IMG/VR virus record: IMGVR_UViG_3300023236_000004
Length of the DNA: 64,000 bases
Strand: one strand, 5' to 3'
Origin: an uncultured virus (IMG/VR IMGVR_UViG_3300023236_000004)
Lineage: Duplodnaviria; Heunggongvirae; Uroviricota; Caudoviricetes
Shown here piece after piece: positions 5,604 through 49,592 of this stretch (positions are counted from its first letter, which is position 1; every line of letters begins with the position of its first letter). Below the pieces are notes generated by a model that was not told the origin of the DNA, did not search any database, and was given only the letters and a program-made list of their open reading frames with translations. Made by a program: the position numbers and the translations under genes.

Positions 5604-8600
5604 TTATAAAGTTCCTGCGGCTATATCACCTGGATTTTTTAGTCTAATTGGAATGAAGATAAATTCAACTGCCTTCATTGGTTCAATAGCAATATCAACA
5701 TACAACTCGTTACGTGCAATACGTGTCGGAGTATTGTTTGAATTATCGCAAACTACCAAGTAGTCAAAAAGACCACGTTTAGAAACTAAATCATTTAGTG
5801 AGCCACTAATAATATTTGAGATTTGATCTCTTGTTATTTTATCGTTTGGTTCAAACAAGAATCCATCTCCAACTCTTGCAAGTGATGTTCGTATAAAGTT
5901 AACTAAACGTGCTACGTTAATACGATCCAAACTACTTGCGGTTGGATTACGAGTCTTCTGTCCAAATACAACTAAGCCAATGCCTGGCAAATTAGTAATT
6001 GGGTTGATCTTGTTTTCGTACAGTGTATCGCGTAGTCCTACTCTAATACTGTTAGTTTCAAACTCTCCTGTTGTTGAGTTAATATAACCAACACTAGAAG
6101 CATTGTCTACTAGACCTCGTCTTGTACCTGCTGGTGCAAACCACTGATACGCAACATTATCGTTAAAGATCATTGTGCGCAGTGCCATATGACTTGATGG
6201 GACAACAATAGCGTTGCCTTGTAAGTCTGAAGTCAGACCTGCTGGATAATACACACCTAAGTACGGATCACTAGTTGATAGTCCGTCTCCGTTAGTATTA
6301 TTACTCCAGGCAGCAATGTCAGTAGCAGTTGGTGCTAGGCGTAACGGGGTATCACCAATAACAAACGCTGTATTCTTGCGATCGTTATTAAGAGCTACCA
6401 TTTCATCAATTACTTCTTCATACCCTGGTGCGGCAATAATATTAAAACTATATTGATCTTCACGCACTTCAGTATTTGCTGTTACTGCACTTTGCATTGC
6501 GGCTACAATTGATTGTCTTTGTGCTTTACGTCCTGCATTCATAGCACCACTAGTTTGTACTCCACTTTGTGTTTGCCATGTGTTCTTTACAGTTGGTAAA
6601 CTGCTACCCGCGCCTGGAACTGCTGGCAAAGTTGGGAATGCAGTTGCGTTAAACTTATCATTTACGTACTGTTTAATGTTGTATCCACCTCTACGCATGT
6701 TCCACAAAAGTGTACCACGTGGGAAAAGTCTATAGTCCGGTGCGTCTTGGTCAATATAATCACTTGCTAACAAACTTGTAATTGATGGTAGAGCTCCTGT
6801 GATAATGTCTGTAGTACCATCTGTATCCCAACGTGCATCTGCAAACACGATACCATTCTGACTTGTTTGGTCTGTGTTGTCAATTAATACAAAAGCAGTA
6901 CCACTGTAGCGATAAAGTTTTGGATAGTTTTCTAAATCACTGCTGTCTAACCACAAATCACCTGCTTTGAGTGAAGTTACACCATCGCTTTGGAATGTTG
7001 GCTCGGTTGCACTAACTTGCACACCGTTTGCATCTGTCAGACTTAAATTAAAACCACGTGCATCTGTTGTTGACCCGTCATAGTAACTGCTCTTGTAGCC
7101 TTTCCAGCCACCGATATCAGCAATCATAATATCAACTGCGGCAGCGTCACTATAGTACCAAAGTGTGCCGTCTGCTGGTGCTTGGTATGGAGCAGTAGTG
7201 CTGTATGTGTATGTTAGTGCTTCCCAGTTAGTCAATGCAAGAACACTGCCAGCGTACAATATAGTACCTGTTGTGCTACTTGAAAAACCTGCATCTGCTG
7301 TTGGTGTACCCGAAACATCTGTTAGGTAAATATCACCACCATAGATATGAGTGAAAGTAATAACATTTGTACTACTTACACTAATGTCTAACTCTGGAAT
7401 GTTAAGTGCTAGTATGTCGCTTACAAAAAGTGCTGGTGATGTACCTGACAATACTACTGTGTACTCTGTAATCACTGCTGAGCCAATACTGGTAACACCA
7501 ATCTTTAGTTGCTCAGTGGCAGTAAATGGATTAGCGGCTGTTGCAGTACCACTAACTACTGTTTGTCCTGCTACTCTACGACTAAATGGCTTGTAACCAC
7601 CTGTGCTTGTACGTAATGGATCATAAGCAACCCAAAGTGTACCAGCGGCAATACCATTACCGCCACCAGCTGGATCTAAACCATAAAGTGCATTTTCTGC
7701 TCTGTTGTAGAAAGGAGCAGCCTGTGTAGTGAATATATCTGTGGTTGTGCTGTACTTTTTAATAGTCAAATCAGCACCTGAACCAGTTGCACCAAGTTTA
7801 GCAAATACTGAACCTGTCGGACGTGGTGTTGTGTCTGTGCTTCTCCAACTTGGATATGCGGCAAAGCTACCGTAAAGCAATAGTGGGTTAGCGTATGTTC
7901 CTGCTGTAATGCCCAATGTTGTTAATGGAGTTCCTGATCCGTTAGCAATTGCAATCTTTCCGTCTGCTGTTGCTCCGTCGCTTTCTGCTAGGCTTGAAGC
8001 ATACAAGTACAACTTGTTGCCTACATTAGCGGCTGTAACACCAGTAACTGCGGCAGTGTTGATTGAGCTAACAACTTGGTCTAGTGTCCTACCAGCGCCA
8101 GTATTACCAATAGTAACGGTATCGCCGTTAATTGTAACTGTAGCGGCTGGAGTGCTTGCAGGAATACTTGGTGAACTTGCTGTACCTTGGATTGTAGCAA
8201 TACTAGTTGCCCAATCATCTGTTCCTATACGTACCCATGTGTTGTACTTTGCATCACCTGTTGGTAAATCTCCACCAGCTTTAAGGAACAAGTTAGCACT
8301 GCTTCCTGTGCCAAATGATACAGCATACTGACCAATTTGTCCAATGCTTGCTTTAGGTACATAGATGCTACTAACTAGTGTTTGATCAGCTGTGCTTGTG
8401 ATCAGCAACGGAGTATTATTTGTAAATGTATTTGTACTAGCATTCCATGAATAAATGCCCCATGCACTTACACTCAAATCTAACCAATGTGTGTTGTTTG
8501 CTACTGCGCCTGTTGGGCGAACTGCTGTTGGTGCTAGTTGATCTAAGTCAACATTTGCTCTAATAGCAAAAATTTTGTTTACATTACCCAATGCGCTATA

Positions 8601-32944: not shown

Positions 32945-33067
32945 TTTGTTTCTCCTTAAATTAAGTGGCGTTCTAGGCCTACGCGGTTTGGTTCCGCATA
33001 AGAACATATAAAGATTTATATGAACAGTAGTATTTATGTAATAGTAGTCATAAAAAAGCAGCCAACT

Positions 33068-33352
33068 TCATTCACGCTCCCAGGGAGCAGGCGTGAGCAT
33101 AGTTTTGCGTAAACGGTCATTAGGCTTAGGTAGCATATCCAAGCGAGCCTGAAACTGCGCAAAGGCGTCTGGGCTGGTCGCCATGATCACCTGGTCGAGC
33201 AGAGTGTCTTCTGCAGCGAGACGAGCAGACTCCAGTATGAAGTCCGTGAGATTTTTGCCGCGTGACTTCGCCGCACGATCAATTAGATCTCGAACTTTGG
33301 GTTCTATGCGGATATTGAGCGTTTCGCACTTTACTTCTGTAGCTGTATTCAT
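33068..33352 (-). CDS. DUF1778 (TacA/AtaR-type RHH) antitoxin, orphan
   Basis: TLNIRI....RDLIDRAA...GK.LTDFILESAR.AAEDTLLDQ.......F..F...LD..P.PN.RLRK.M..PAPW. SD AAGGAGG. About 52% GC by manual count. Confidence 0.88.
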   Translation of the reverse strand: MNTATEVKCETLNIRIEPKVRDLIDRAAKSRGKNLTDFILESARLAAEDTLLDQVIMATSPDAFAQFQARLDMLPKPNDRLRKTMLTPAPWERE

Positions 33353-33389
33353 CCAAGATCCTCCTTAAATAATATGTAATAGCAGTTAT

Positions 33390-33413
33390 AAAAAAAGGGG
33401 CAGTTACACCCCT
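33390..33413 (-). terminator. Rho-independent terminator after the riboswitch-controlled peptide
   Basis: AGGGGUG-UAAC-UGCCCCU followed by a U-run. Confidence 0.75.
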
Positions 33414-33419
33414 CGAAGT

Positions 33420-33527
33420 TCACTTGTATGTGTTGTGTAATGTACGCAACAACAAAAGTTTCAACATGCATAACTTGCGATAGTCATCAAGTGCATGTAG
33501 TCTACAATATTGAGTCCACATTGTCAT
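33420..33527 (-). CDS. Unannotated 35-aa peptide MTMWTQYCRLHALDDYRKLCMLKLLLLRTLHNTYK
   Basis: Strong SD AAGGAGG upstream of the ATG. Sits between the riboswitch and a terminator. Shorter than anything in the ORF track. Confidence 0.7.
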   Translation of the reverse strand: MTMWTQYCRLHALDDYRKLCMLKLLLLRTLHNTYK

Positions 33528-33554
33528 TTTAACACCCTCCTTTTTAAAGTTAGG

Positions 33555-33606
33555 TGCGTTCCTTCGGTAACCATTACCTACTTCCGTCTCTTTCGAGATG
33601 AACGAT
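33555..33606 (-). ncRNA. glnA-type (glutamine-I) riboswitch aptamer 2
   Basis: AUCGUUCA-UCUC(GAAA)GAGA-CGGAAGUA-GGUAA(UGG)UUACC-GAAGGAACGCA: P1 CGUUC/GAACG, P2, GGAAGUA junction, P3, GAAG. Confidence 0.88.
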
Positions 33607-33611
33607 GATAA

Positions 33612-33664
33612 TGCGTTCCTTCGACTAATAATGAAGTCTACTTCCGGCCTCTCAGCTGAACGTA
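33612..33664 (-). ncRNA. glnA-type (glutamine-I) riboswitch aptamer 1
   Basis: UACGUUCA-GCU(GAGA)GGC-CGGAAGUA-GACU(8 nt)AGUC-GAAGGAACGCA. Same core as aptamer 2, with different but paired P2/P3. Confidence 0.88.
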
Positions 33665-33668
33665 TATA

Positions 33669-33699
33669 TATTTATACACTAACCGTCATATTAAGTCAA
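33669..33699 (-). promoter_or_regulatory. Composite promoter for the riboswitch unit: TTGACT-17-TATAAA (sigma70) overlapping TATAAATA (late)
   Basis: -35 at 33694..33699 and TATAAATA at 33669..33676, placing the start site at the 5' end of aptamer 1. Confidence 0.7.
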
Positions 33700-33756
33700 G
33701 TTATTTTGTTTTATATTGACAGAAAAGGTGTTGAATCAAATAGAGTTTTAAGTCAC

Positions 33757-33782
33757 AAAAAAAGGGTCTTGCGACCCCTTTT
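33757..33782 (-). terminator. Terminator after the major capsid gene
   Basis: GGGUC-GCAA-GACCC followed by a U-run on the minus strand. Confidence 0.85.
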
Positions 33783-33801
33783 CTGTTTTTGCTTGTTACT
33801 A

Positions 33802-34986
33802 TTACTGGAAAGACAAGTTAGAAACTGCGATTTCCCCGAGATAGTCGGCTGCATTACCAAACGATGATGCTGTATTGGTGAGCTCTACGTACCCGTAGCG
33901 GGTCATAAAGCCAACTACTGGCTCAAGTGTTGATGGATCCAACACAACACCACTGCTCATTAATGGAACATATGGGCAATAGAATGCGGCTGCATCTGCT
34001 TCGCTTGAACCTTTGTAACCAACTAGAACTGCCTGTGCATCGCCAGCATAGCTGTCTACATAAACTTTCATTGCGCCATTCAATGTACCAACAAACTTGG
34101 TGTTTGTAGGTGCTTCAAATGTGCCTTCAGTTGTACGTGCAAAAGCACTTGTTGTTGCGCTTTGGAGAACTGTTAAAGCGGCTGGTGAAACAACTGCCCA
34201 GTTACCTGCGCCACGACGTGTGCGTGATGCAATCAAGTTAGCTGTTCTGTTGATAAGAACTGCCAATGCGGCATGCTCATCACCAACGTAAGTAGCTGTA
34301 CCAGATACTGCTGCCTGGTTATATGTGAACTCAGTACCAGCAAGACTACGAAGTGAACCAAGAACTTCTTGATCAATTTCAACTGTAATCTCTTGTGCAA
34401 GAGCTGCCATAACTTCTGCTTCAATATCTAAGCCGTGCATTGCTTGCGCATCTTGAGCGGCTTCGAATGTCCAACGTGCTGATAGCTTACGTGTCTTAGC
34501 TTCAACAACTTGCTTTAAGATCTGGACGTTGATCTTGTTACCTGGTGTACCTTCAAGTGTACTTGTGCTGTCAGCACGACCGGTAGCAGTACTACCTGAA
34601 TATACTGTAGCAATCTTAAATGGTGATAGTGCTTCGTCACCAGCAGTAACGCTTGTATCAAATGGCGCACCTGCTGTTGATGTAGCGTTATCAGCATAAC
34701 GTACACGTAGTGTGTGAATCTGTGCAACTGGACCTGTCATAGGCTGTACACCAACAATTTCGTTAGCAATAACGGTTGGCATTACTCGTCTAATGACTGG
34801 TAAAATTACACGGTTCAATGTAGCAACGTTACCAGCGGCTGTTGAGCCAGCAGTAGCGGTCTCTTGCAAACTCTTGCGGGTGTTTTCAAGAATAACTCCC
34901 ATTGTAGTACGCTTGGAGCCATTTAGTCCTTCTAACAGGGCATCTTTTGTTTCGCCCCAACGGCTTTCTAATAGTGCTTGTGTCAT
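33802..34986 (-). CDS. gp23: Major capsid protein
   Basis: LPVIRRVMPTVIANEIVGVQPMTGP...VEAKTRKL.ARWT.EAAQD...HG.D.E.E...EID...FYCPYVPL...TRYG. Confidence 0.97.
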   Translation of the reverse strand: MTQALLESRWGETKDALLEGLNGSKRTTMGVILENTRKSLQETATAGSTAAGNVATLNRVILPVIRRVMPTVIANEIVGVQPMTGPVAQIHTLRVRYADNATSTAGAPFDTSVTAGDEALSPFKIATVYSGSTATGRADSTSTLEGTPGNKINVQILKQVVEAKTRKLSARWTFEAAQDAQAMHGLDIEAEVMAALAQEITVEIDQEVLGSLRSLAGTEFTYNQAAVSGTATYVGDEHAALAVLINRTANLIASRTRRGAGNWAVVSPAALTVLQSATTSAFARTTEGTFEAPTNTKFVGTLNGAMKVYVDSYAGDAQAVLVGYKGSSEADAAAFYCPYVPLMSSGVVLDPSTLEPVVGFMTRYGYVELTNTASSFGNAADYLGEIAVSNLSFQ

Positions 34987-43149: not shown

Positions 43150-43571
43150 GACTAACTTCGTTAGTCTGTTGATTTCGTTATCACTCATCAACTTGTTTTT
43201 TAATGATATGTTTTTAGACGTTTCATCTAGATCACATGGTCACTCTTTGCCCAGGGCGGGCAAAAAAGTAAACTGCTTCATCTGAGTATAACAGTCACTT
43301 AGCATTAGAGCATTACAGAGGCGGTTGTCCGGTACCTCGAGCTCCGTCTTTATAACAACGGCGATTTATATAACATACGCTAACATATTACATAAACGTG
43401 TAGTATCGCTACTACGTCTTTTTAGCTTTATTGAATCCTGTTCAAACAATCAAACTCTAGCATTGAGAGTCTTCATCCATATGGGTAGTGATTGAGTGCT
43501 TGCTGTAGCGGCAAGTCTTACGTCCCTGCACACGTTACTGTCAGGTTTGGTACACACGAGATTAGCCTGTG
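43150..43571 (-). ncRNA. Candidate ~420-nt structured ncRNA directly 3' of a GIY-YIG gene
   Basis: No ORF listed in the track. At least 10 consecutive or nested helices; G-U pairs and a GCGA tetraloop favour the minus strand. Confidence 0.6.
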
Positions 43572-43994
43572 TTAGCTGTTACTACTTAATTTGTTTATAA
43601 TGTGGGAGCCATGGACACGGACTTGTATATGTCCGTTATAGTATTGTGGTGTTTCTAAGACTTTGTGTCTGAATTGTTCTCGTGCCTCGATATAACTGCA
43701 TTCTGCCTTGCTTTTACAATAGTAGAGTATTTCTCTTTGAAAGTTTTCTGTGCCTAGTTGTTCTATGTCTTTGTTGAGTTCGTCGTTTGAGCCATAATAT
43801 TCACGCCAGTTACTTTCTTTTGTTCCACGGCGTTTGTTCTTCCTGCCTTTAAGTGGGGGCTTGGTGGTTTTAAACCGTGCAAGCTTCTTCCCGATGTATT
43901 TACGGTTATTTGTTAAATTCGTTATCAAATAAACGAATCCAACACAATCTTCTGGTAGTACTTCTATTTCTTTAGATTCAAATAACCATGACAT
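43572..43994 (-). CDS. Stand-alone GIY-YIG nuclease-family protein
   Basis: GFVYLITN..N.RKYIGKK...Y.GS...G.ENF.REIL...E......YYN. 140 aa, with no appended DNA-binding domain. Confidence 0.85.
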   Translation of the reverse strand: MSWLFESKEIEVLPEDCVGFVYLITNLTNNRKYIGKKLARFKTTKPPLKGRKNKRRGTKESNWREYYGSNDELNKDIEQLGTENFQREILYYCKSKAECSYIEAREQFRHKVLETPQYYNGHIQVRVHGSHIINKLSSNS

Positions 43995-48660: not shown

Positions 48661-49521
48661 TTATTTGCCTGAGTTCTGTCTGGTATGGCTAGGAGTTAGA
48701 TTATTCATCTCCAATATATCATCACGCAAATTTTGGTTACGCTTTTCCATATTTAACACTCTAGTAAAACTATTTGTAATCGCGGCAGTGTAGTATGCAA
48801 ACGGGTTTTGACTTTTTGACTCATCAAATTGCAATCCAATTTGGCTTAACTGCACAAGTGCAGTGCTACGCATTTCGTCGTTGTATGTGTAACCACGCCA
48901 GTTTGACCGAGTAGCATAGCGTTCGCATAACTTAATAAACATGTGAGCTAGCTTGTTTGTCATAGTGCCATGATCTTTTGAAAACTCGCCCGTTTCTAAA
49001 TCACCAATCCAATGACTCTTACATACTAGGTATGGCTCACCTTCTTGGGTAATTCTGTAGTGGAAGAAAGGTGGGAAGTTACATCTAACATGTTTTTTCG
49101 CTACAGGGATATCATCTGGTATTTCGTTCTCTTGATCAACATGATCATCATTGTCAATGAATAATTTTTTTATCTCTTTCTTTTTCCTCTTGCCACCATT
49201 TGGGTCAAGTGGTATGTGTTCGAAAGTCATAATTCTAAACACAACGTCTGTAGCAGGCACATCACGAGTGTTTACCTTAAACTCGTCTAATTTAAGTTTT
49301 ACTGTTGACTCTAGTTGTGCGGCATCAAAAGCGGCCCTGCCTAAACGTTCAGCACGTAGTTTGCGCCCTTCTGCTATGTTTGTTTTGTTGATTCGCTCAA
49401 CACCAGGGAGAATAATATCAAAGTCACCGTTTTCTGATGTTGTGGATTTGCAGTATGTTTTCTTGCTTTTGTGTATCTCTTTCAGTATATCTCTGTTGTT
49501 GAGATAGTTTTGTTTTCTCAT
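48661..49521 (-). CDS. gp55: Late-transcription sigma factor with a large insertion
   Basis: NYLNN.D.L.EI...L...YA.R.NW.GYTY.DEM...FD..KS.NPFAYYT....NSF.R.L..EK. Confidence 0.88.
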   Translation of the reverse strand: MRKQNYLNNRDILKEIHKSKKTYCKSTTSENGDFDIILPGVERINKTNIAEGRKLRAERLGRAAFDAAQLESTVKLKLDEFKVNTRDVPATDVVFRIMTFEHIPLDPNGGKRKKKEIKKLFIDNDDHVDQENEIPDDIPVAKKHVRCNFPPFFHYRITQEGEPYLVCKSHWIGDLETGEFSKDHGTMTNKLAHMFIKLCERYATRSNWRGYTYNDEMRSTALVQLSQIGLQFDESKSQNPFAYYTAAITNSFTRVLNMEKRNQNLRDDILEMNNLTPSHTRQNSGK

Positions 49522-49592
49522 GGAATGCATTCCTTTATATAAGCATATAATTTAACAGATAAATATCTAAAGAGCAAGAGGAATCTAAAAAA

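Follow-up and report, generated by a model that had tools for sequence, protein, structure and literature searches.

The 64,000-nucleotide (nt) stretch of DNA considered here, hereafter the window, belongs to an uncultured virus of the Caudoviricetes (IMG/VR record IMGVR_UViG_3300023236_000004). Directly downstream of its major capsid gene, on the minus strand, lies a short cassette. In the order of transcription, the terminator of the capsid gene is followed by a promoter, a first glutamine aptamer, a linker, a second glutamine aptamer, a Shine-Dalgarno (SD) sequence, an open reading frame (ORF) for 35 amino acids (aa) and a second terminator. A preliminary description, made from the letters, had drawn attention to positions 33555-33699, a span bounded by the -35 hexamer and the end of the second aptamer. 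The window probably holds here a true translational switch that is gated by glutamine, governs the 35-aa ORF and is carried in a mobile cassette. The features of the locus are as follows.

34986-33802, minus strand: major capsid protein gene (Gp23 family), upstream neighbour of the cassette (Pfam PF07068, E 3.5e-98; PHROG major head protein, E 6e-101)
Hairpin 33777-33764 (GGGTC/GACCC) and seven T at 33763-33757, minus strand: intrinsic terminator after the capsid gene (hairpin scan, where it is listed on the plus strand, and reading)
TTGACT 33699-33694, 17-nt spacer, TATAAA 33676-33671, minus strand: promoter (reading and four-cassette alignment)
33664-33610, minus strand: glutamine aptamer 1, distal (RF01739, 46.7 bits, E 4.5e-07, model positions 1-53)
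33613-33607, minus strand: CAUUAUC, tail of aptamer 1 and linker, complementary over seven consecutive pairs to 33578-33572
Between the aptamers, minus strand: linker CAUUAUCAU, 9 nt, with no SD, start codon or terminator
33606-33553, minus strand: glutamine aptamer 2, proximal (RF01739, 61.1 bits, E 4.9e-11, model positions 1-53)
33578-33572, minus strand: GGUAAUG, 5′ strand and loop of P3 of aptamer 2, pairing with UUACC 33570-33566 (native P3) or with the tail of aptamer 1
CACCU 33556-33552 with GGGUG 33537-33533, minus strand: expression platform (covariation in 70 viral leaders)
33542-33536, minus strand: SD AAGGAGG, 8 nt from the ATG at 33527
33527-33420, minus strand: 35-aa ORF (MTMWTQYCR...), from the ORF list
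Hairpin 33414-33395 with an 8-bp stem, T-run to 33388, minus strand: intrinsic terminator closing the cassette (terminator scan)

The class of the two aptamers was addressed by scanning the whole window against the 4227 families of Rfam 15. Four matches exceed the curated cut-offs. Two of them, both full length, are to RF01739 (Glutamine), a family with a gathering score of 35 bits, and the same two matches are obtained in the near-identical record G001. In the model alignment, all conserved junction blocks are intact, and the three-way junction of stems P1, P2 and P3 is present in both copies with the blocks CGUUCA, CGGAAGUAG and GAAGGAACGCA; reading of the sequence gives CGUUCA, CGGAAGUA and GAAGGAACGCA as the blocks common to the two aptamers. 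The P2 stems (GCU/GGC with loop GAGA against UCUC/GAGA with loop GAAA) and the P3 stems (GACU/AGUC against GGUAA/UUACC) differ in sequence between the aptamers and are nevertheless paired. Both aptamers truly belong to the glnA/glutamine-I class, as the preliminary description had held when it read here a phage-borne tandem glnA-type riboswitch with shared blocks and with P2 and P3 stems that differ yet pair. Membership of the family suggests that the RNA of the window would respond to L-glutamine. A C is found directly 3′ of P1 at 33613 in aptamer 1 and at 33556 in aptamer 2. A long-range G-C pair, G23-C60, has been described for the bound state (Ren et al., as quoted in PMC6212724). The two C residues may correspond to C60, an equivalence that is our own mapping from the Rfam consensus.

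Cassettes of the window and of three relatives, which differ by 13-16% in the alignable part, were compared in a four-way alignment. Aptamer 2 and the linker are identical in all four, and the changes in P2 of aptamer 1 are compensatory (GCU/GGC, GCC/GGC and GGC/GCC). It might be imagined that the aptamers have decayed or been repurposed, no longer respond to glutamine and match Rfam by ancestry only; aptamer 1 indeed has the lower score (46.7 bits), and its P3 loop is long. Such a loss of function seems very improbable. Every conserved block of the model is kept in both copies, the stems change only with compensation, and aptamer 2 is identical both in relatives that have diverged around it and in a bacterial chromosome described below.

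The link between aptamer 2 and expression was studied in a wider set of viral sequences. Scanning IMG/VR with a regular expression for the aptamer gave at least 120 stretches, and DNA was obtained for 80. Among the matches listed, 70 distinct viral leaders with a recognisable SD were aligned with MAFFT, without selection. In this set, the tail located 3′ of P1 tends to be complementary to the 3′ end of the SD and the bases that follow it, the pairs encountered being CACCU:GGGUG, CACUU:GAGUG, CACUUU:GAAGUG, CAUCUUU:GGAGAUG, CAAUCUU:GAGAUUG and CGCCU:AGGUG. In the alignment, 72.2% of the cells of the tail:SD helix pair as compared with 65.0% in shuffles, none of 500 shuffles reaches the covariation score, and slid registers pair at 31-54%. 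The pair 22-52, for instance, is U-A in 29 leaders, C-G in 26 and U-G in 3. In the window, the helix runs from C33556-G33533 through U33552-G33537, thus using the five bases directly 3′ of P1. GGGUG overlaps the last two G of the SD, and most of AAGGAGG is within the hairpin loop. The preliminary description had the 3′ strand of the second P1, AACGCACC, pair with GGGUGUU. Pairing of the 3′ tail of aptamer 2 with the SD region stands; the register does not, for covariation gives CACCU:GGGUG and leaves the 3′ strand of P1 itself outside the conserved helix. At the same platform position, cyanobacterial leaders from a genome scan carry CGCCUC…GAGGCG, among the matches listed. This is the helix between the tail and the ribosome-binding site (RBS) whose melting by glutamine Klahn et al. 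postulate for the gifB leader (PMC6212724).

Considering these observations, the riboswitch most likely acts on translation. Without glutamine, CACCU would pair with GGGUG and the RBS would be held in an imperfect hairpin, corresponding to an OFF state. Binding of glutamine to aptamer 2 would lead to the capture of the tail by the aptamer and free the SD, as proposed for the gifB leader, so that the 35-aa peptide would be made at high glutamine. In the minimum free energy (MFE) fold, the tail:SD helix is extended to an imperfect hairpin of -10.1 kcal/mol, in which the AAG of the SD is also paired. Several points weigh against this view. In the 70-leader alignment, 28% of the cells are unpaired; they mostly come from a second platform class (GUAAAGGAG type, …GUAAAGGAGCA), which was included in the set and accompanies YRG peptides, among others. 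The same five tail:SD pairs come out of RNAalifold on 46 leaders, which were picked for having the helix and hence give no independent support. The SD hairpin alone is no stabler than shuffled sequences (z -1.49; 16 of 200 fold as well), and without the weaker inner CUU/AAG pairs it masks no more than two G of the SD. Finally, the ON polarity is carried over from Synechocystis, and would hold by analogy.

The arrangement of the two aptamers suggests a second level of control. A scan for two aptamers 4-16 nt apart gave 109 viral stretches, corresponding to 73 distinct tandems. In most of these, the first seven bases past P1 of aptamer 1 are complementary to the first seven bases of P3 of aptamer 2. 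The combination CAUUAUC:GGUAAUG occurs in 29 of the 73, the window included, and CAUUGUU:GGCAAUG in 9, CAUUACU:GGUAAUG in 2 and UAUUAUC:GGUAAUA in one. A MAFFT alignment of 42 distinct linker-plus-aptamer-2 sequences gives 86.1% of paired cells for this inter-aptamer helix; the covariation score is reached by 0 of 500 shuffles, and slid registers pair at 28-71%. Changes on both sides are observed in 19 cells over three pairs (U-A 30 and C-G 8; A-U 21 and G-C 10; C-G 25 and U-A 1). P3 column 58 covaries with both of its partners, the counts with the native one being U-A 31 and C-G 10. Joint variation of one P3 column with the linker and with the native strand is the signature of two mutually exclusive helices. 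In addition, of 66 second aptamers in viral tandems, 54 have the P3 motif GG[UC]AAUG/GGUGAU, which is lacking from all 66 first aptamers. Among the matches listed, the motif is carried by 2 of 64 viral and 0 of 62 genomic single aptamers and, where genomes have tandems, by 10 of 56 second aptamers. Left unconstrained, the leader of the window folds at its MFE (-39.0 kcal/mol, z -2.15) with the inter-aptamer helix and the SD hairpin formed together; if both aptamers are to keep their native structure, the optimum is -30.3 kcal/mol.

These data may be accounted for by a two-ligand relay. In this model, the tail CAUUAUC of unliganded aptamer 1 would pair with GGUAAUG of P3, which would exclude the folded form of aptamer 2. 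Glutamine bound at aptamer 1 would release aptamer 2, and glutamine bound in turn at aptamer 2 would open the SD, giving a steeper response. With modest confidence, we incline to this relay rather than to two independent switches. In the other model, the aptamers would be independent sensors, pseudo-cooperative or redundant, only aptamer 2 would touch the SD, and the complementarity between linker and P3 would be inherited and functionless. A review of tandem riboswitches, in the part available (PMC9481103), classes glutamine doublets as independent and "pseudo-cooperative", and the signal for the relay comes from few independent lineages: there are 18 distinct combinations of tail and P3, and a permutation over them reaches the observed mean in 16 of 2000 trials. 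Pairing is weaker or shifted in register in the CAUCUUC:GGUGAU class (16 of 73 tandems) and absent with CCGAAAU/CCGAACU linkers (4 of 73, the CCGAAAU class making up three combinations). Moreover, nearest-neighbour energies ignore the tertiary structure of the aptamers, which makes the MFE result weak. All these points weigh against a relay. Independence of the two sensors nevertheless appears doubtful. Each aptamer of a pseudo-cooperative tandem would have its own platform, whereas aptamer 1 has none here because the 9 nt of CAUUAUCAU that separate it from aptamer 2 hold no SD, start codon or terminator. Furthermore, P3, otherwise variable, is fixed only in short-linker second aptamers, and it changes there jointly with the linker. 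In the parts available of the literature on glutamine riboswitches with tandem or cooperativity, no paper on a linker-P3 helix was found. If the relay is true, one class of tandems would be true two-input switches in which the tail of the first aptamer blocks P3 of the second, a rule that bears on riboswitch engineering and on the 157 catalogued doublets.

Tandems of the SAR11 type (L320-L436, from single-cell genomes and metagenome-assembled genomes) offer a natural contrast. They have linkers of 17-18 nt and are without the P3 motif. Their linker begins with CAUGC, complementary to a GCAUG located about 26-30 nt past aptamer 2, apparently at the start codon, with no GGAG-type SD; the architecture is unlike that of the window.

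The product of the switch also deserves consideration. The ORF is in frame in all four related cassettes, with 33 or 35 codons. Neither the ORF of the window nor its three orthologues match a Pfam family up to E = 10, and searching Pfam with the peptide and 14 family members gave chance-level matches only. Grouped by eye, look-alike ORFs of 28-47 aa lie behind the aptamer at 22 of 80 viral loci, among the matches listed. They define a family, A, with the pattern M-[TD]-x-[WFY]-x-x-[YWF]-C-[RFY]-basic … [HY]-basic … Leu-rich, which is retained across loci with very different DNA (family alignments A3 and A8). A profile search in 1.84 billion representative proteins returned 18 proteins at E ≤0.001, all of 29-72 aa and, where the source gives a name, called "hypothetical protein". 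The longest of these lengths is that of P0001 (72 aa), in which two family-A peptides are joined through an in-frame translated riboswitch tail and SD; this suggests a contig with a peptide, a partial riboswitch and a peptide in tandem. AlphaFold2, run on a 29-row alignment, predicts one continuous helix over residues 3-34 (mean predicted local distance difference test score 91.6); a search of the ESM Atlas, with a best score of 0.78, was uninformative. With this predicted fold, the ORF product is a basic single-helix micropeptide. Its unannotated family is found behind glutamine riboswitches of aquatic phages and of at least one proteobacterial chromosome.

Other viral loci carry other cargo behind the aptamer: DUF4278 "YRG" peptides, a 64-aa family, two 45-50-aa families or a 32-aa family. 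DUF4278 was matched in 5 of the 6 such phage ORFs submitted to Pfam, 3 of them above the cut-off. Identity of the peptide of the window with DUF4278/IF17 (PF14105, "YRG") was rejected, with no Pfam match and an hhalign probability of 0.2% (A3 against A4); hhalign of its family against the YRG and 64-aa families likewise gave nothing. The gifB-like action put forward in the preliminary description is thus retained for the RNA and abandoned for the cargo. Our best guess for the target of the peptide is in nitrogen assimilation, by analogy with the inactivating factors IF7 and IF17, though we regard it as rather unlikely.

It may further be asked whether the peptide matters at all. In another view, the cassette would be a regulatory RNA, or a leader acting in cis only, which would for example tune read-through into the following gene, TacA, and the structural gene beyond, with the peptide being functionless. 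The peptide is tiny and of no known family, and the copy of the window is weakly constrained (pN 0.23 and pS 0.31, the rates of non-synonymous and synonymous change, against L004), a point that also weighs against the main reading. The next gene, which has its own SD, begins 40 nt past the terminator. We nonetheless consider this alternative unlikely. The pattern aromatic-x2-aromatic-Cys-basic ... His/Tyr-basic ... Leu-rich is retained despite divergent DNA, and for 13 distinct versions of 35 codons pN/pS amounts to 0.39. Every relative has a terminator behind the ORF, and the bacterial copy also has its own; in three relatives, hairpin and T-run are kept with different stem sequences. The TacA gene, moreover, was not found in the three related cassettes. 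A longer operon under the riboswitch was ruled out, the controlled unit, left unnamed in the preliminary description, being the 35-aa ORF with its own terminator. The promoter hexamers are invariant in the four related cassettes and the spacer between them varies. The promoter is missing from the output of the consensus scan, whose pattern ends in a T that TATAAA does not have. An own promoter and insulation from gp23 by a terminator, both proposed in the preliminary description, are borne out by these hexamers and by the hairpin with seven T. The preliminary description had this promoter readable both as sigma70 (TTGACT-17-TATAAA) and as late, and it may be used in either way. The promoter region also reads TATAAATA, a late-promoter motif, at 33676-33669. 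A gene for a gp55-like late sigma factor is present in the window, where TATAAATA is unenriched (6 found against 5.1 expected). The two genes mentioned here are located as follows.

33352-33068, minus strand: TacA1/DUF1778 antitoxin-like gene with its own SD (Pfam E 8e-23)
48664-49530, minus strand: gp55-like late sigma factor gene (PHROG E 1e-78)

The TacA1/DUF1778 gene comes directly after the cassette terminator. No GNAT toxin gene was seen beside it in the window, and this orphan gene may be an anti-defence moron.

The phage that carries the cassette can be placed from its other genes. PHROG matches in the window include tail sheath, tail tube, portal, prohead protease and baseplate proteins besides the gp55-like late sigma factor, and the window is the structural module of a T4-like jumbo myovirus. 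It has 40.4% G+C and no tRNA gene. Among named phages, its capsid DNA comes closest to that of Rak2-like and other jumbo phages (66-69% nucleotide identity). The closest record, G001, is 221 kb long with an estimated completeness of 63%, so that the genome of the carrier would be about 350 kb. G001 is 100% identical to the window over 2948 bases that include the cassette and therefore gives no independent information. The DNA runs holding the stretch, 18 runs with at least 0.90 of its words, are labelled as salt-lake metagenomes. G001 and three relatives with an estimated completeness of 91%, 99% and 100% were searched for psbA and for glutamine synthetase genes, and none was found. The carrier is a jumbo phage beyond the cyanophage and pelagiphage groups.

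The distribution of the cassette was assessed in 80 viral records, many of them short fragments, whose capsid protein is 78-97% identical to that of the window. RF01739 is found in 3 of the 80, each time as a tandem at the same site, and was not found in the other 77, including all three records that are at least 90% complete. Such a survey of the position in related phages had been suggested in the preliminary description. In the six relatives inspected (L005, L007, L008, L009, L013 and L017), the site that follows the capsid gene is in every case occupied by other, unrelated ORFs, for instance GDSW-motif (SGNH-like), HNH-like or histidine-rich membrane-like ones. With its own promoter and terminator, its presence in a subset of close relatives and its variable site, the cassette has the attributes of a moron. 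Its patchy presence, the variability of the site and the absence of the TacA neighbour in the relatives indicate a mobile accessory unit, inserted directly downstream of the capsid gene of a jumbo myovirus. The search against 50,697 named phage records, by tblastn with the peptide and by blastn with the aptamers, gave no match.

Four RNA-library runs were compared with positions 33000-34400. Similarity of their contigs to the window is confined to 33530-33626 and to parts of the capsid gene and ceases at both ends; one contig end reads the start of an MNLWTQYCR ORF. The remainder of 33000-34400 is uncovered in these four runs, in which DNA carry-over is possible. Since they diverge from the window at both ends, these contigs come from other carriers of the aptamer 2 module. 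They do not show transcription of the cassette of the window.

Cellular counterparts of the module were sought with a genome scan for the aptamer, which gave at least 122 stretches. Among the matches listed, the genomic aptamers belong to cyanobacteria and to metagenome-assembled or single-cell genomes of Alpha- and Gammaproteobacteria, with labels such as SAR11/Pelagibacteraceae, SAR86, SAR116, Rhodobacterales and Porticoccaceae, besides others. A 26-kb contig of an "uncultured proteobacterium" (L441) is of particular value. It has promoter-like hexamers, a tandem, a family-A ORF (MNLWTQYCRHQ…) and its own terminator, the whole being located between lrgAB and a thioesterase gene; the remaining neighbours are ordinary cellular genes. 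The cassette points at the lrgA-lrgB pair (7072-7476 and 6345-7076, minus strand), which lies about 190 nt beyond its terminator. Linker, aptamer 2 and platform are identical to those of the window up to the start codon, whereas aptamer 1 and the ORF differ. Through these shared parts, the phage cassette has a cellular counterpart. The L441 genome also carries a type I glutamine synthetase gene followed by that of an NtrB-like kinase. Five bacterial assemblies with such cassettes gave no match to a Gp23 capsid gene, in a search where the controls gave no match either. The cassette has plainly been exchanged with a proteobacterial chromosome, and a host-like bacterium is the most likely source of the module of the phage.

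Cells gauge their supply of nitrogen by glutamine. A glutamine-gated phage gene would hence be timed to the state of the host without any host protein. A bolder scenario may also be formulated. The 35-aa helix would represent a new glutamine-induced micropeptide family, the proteobacterial and phage counterpart of the cyanobacterial glutamine synthetase inactivating factors, and a host-derived two-glutamine relay would have the peptide made only in nitrogen-replete cells, where it would redirect host nitrogen assimilation. As a whole, this scenario seems improbable to us. Whatever its role, the family of peptides of 28-38 aa is nearly invisible to gene callers and always behind a glutamine sensor, and it offers a concrete entry point to the control of nitrogen in streamlined bacteria of aquatic habitats and in their viruses.

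The two other Rfam matches of the window concern different loci. A freshwater-2 RNA (33022-32942, minus strand; 63.7 bits, cut-off 49.9) ends in the SD and ATG of a structural-type gene for 206 aa with an E1_FCCH-like domain (PHROG "major tail protein"). BLAST matches to this leader are likewise located downstream of the capsid gene in each of the 7 relatives that matched there at all (L003-L006, L008, L009 and L017), so that this orphan metagenome motif may be a leader of structural genes in jumbo phages. A Polynucleobacter-1 RNA (43444-43577, minus strand; 93.7 bits, cut-off 37) begins at the stop codon of an ORF for 140 aa (43575-43994), whose matching PHROG families carry the annotation NAD synthetase or homing endonuclease.

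With respect to known systems, the riboswitch class, the tandem arrangement and its carriage by phages are already known. Tandem occurrence of glnA motifs, mentioned in the preliminary description, was noted in 2010 (PMC2864571), and 157 glutamine doublets were counted in 2022 (Sherlock et al., PMC9481103). Glutamine riboswitches were reported in the OM43 phage Melnitz, the Pelagibacter phage Mosig and cyanophages (PMC9004378, PMC9964418). In the available parts of these papers, no description was found of a jumbo-phage carrier, of the family-A peptide or of the inter-aptamer helix. Melnitz, Mosig and S-CREM1 resemble the present case in having a glnA-type aptamer in an aquatic myovirus, with non-cyanobacterial hosts included. 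The aptamer of Melnitz adjoins a two-piece transfer-messenger RNA gene, that of S-CREM1 is a single motif, and the available accounts of these two phages contain no micropeptide cargo, SD-pairing tail or tandem relay (PMC9004378, PMC9964418).

The closest mechanistic parallel is the gifB (IF17) leader of Synechocystis sp. PCC 6803 (PMC6212724). It belongs to the same family, RF01739, is located in a 5′ untranslated region and precedes the gene of a small protein. Its proposed platform is alike, bases 3′ of P1 pairing with the RBS in a helix that glutamine would melt (ON). Unlike this leader, the window has two aptamers 9 nt apart, CACCU:GGGUG in place of CGCCUC:GAGGCG, a product that is not DUF4278/IF17 and, as carrier, a jumbo phage without psbA. 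As in the tandem riboswitches that have been reviewed, two aptamers for the same ligand precede one ORF and a sharper dose-response is expected (PMC9481103). The glutamine doublets of the review are however described, in its available part, as complete independent riboswitches, whereas in the window the tail of aptamer 1 is complementary to P3 of aptamer 2. This tandem is also unlike the glycine type, where tertiary contacts link the folded aptamers, and the thiamine pyrophosphate type, which has two terminators.

As regards the cargo, IF7/IF17 and the DUF4278 "IF17-like" peptides are also small basic proteins with glutamine-gated synthesis, a property that is predicted for the peptide of the window, and DUF4278 peptides also sit behind phage glutamine riboswitches. 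Unlike IF7/IF17, the peptide has neither sequence nor profile similarity to them, and its predicted fold is one continuous helix. Finally, the morons of lambdoid phages are promoter-gene-terminator units lying amid conserved late genes and present in some relatives only. Unlike them, the cassette of the window carries a metabolite sensor, and its nearest copy is in a bacterial chromosome.

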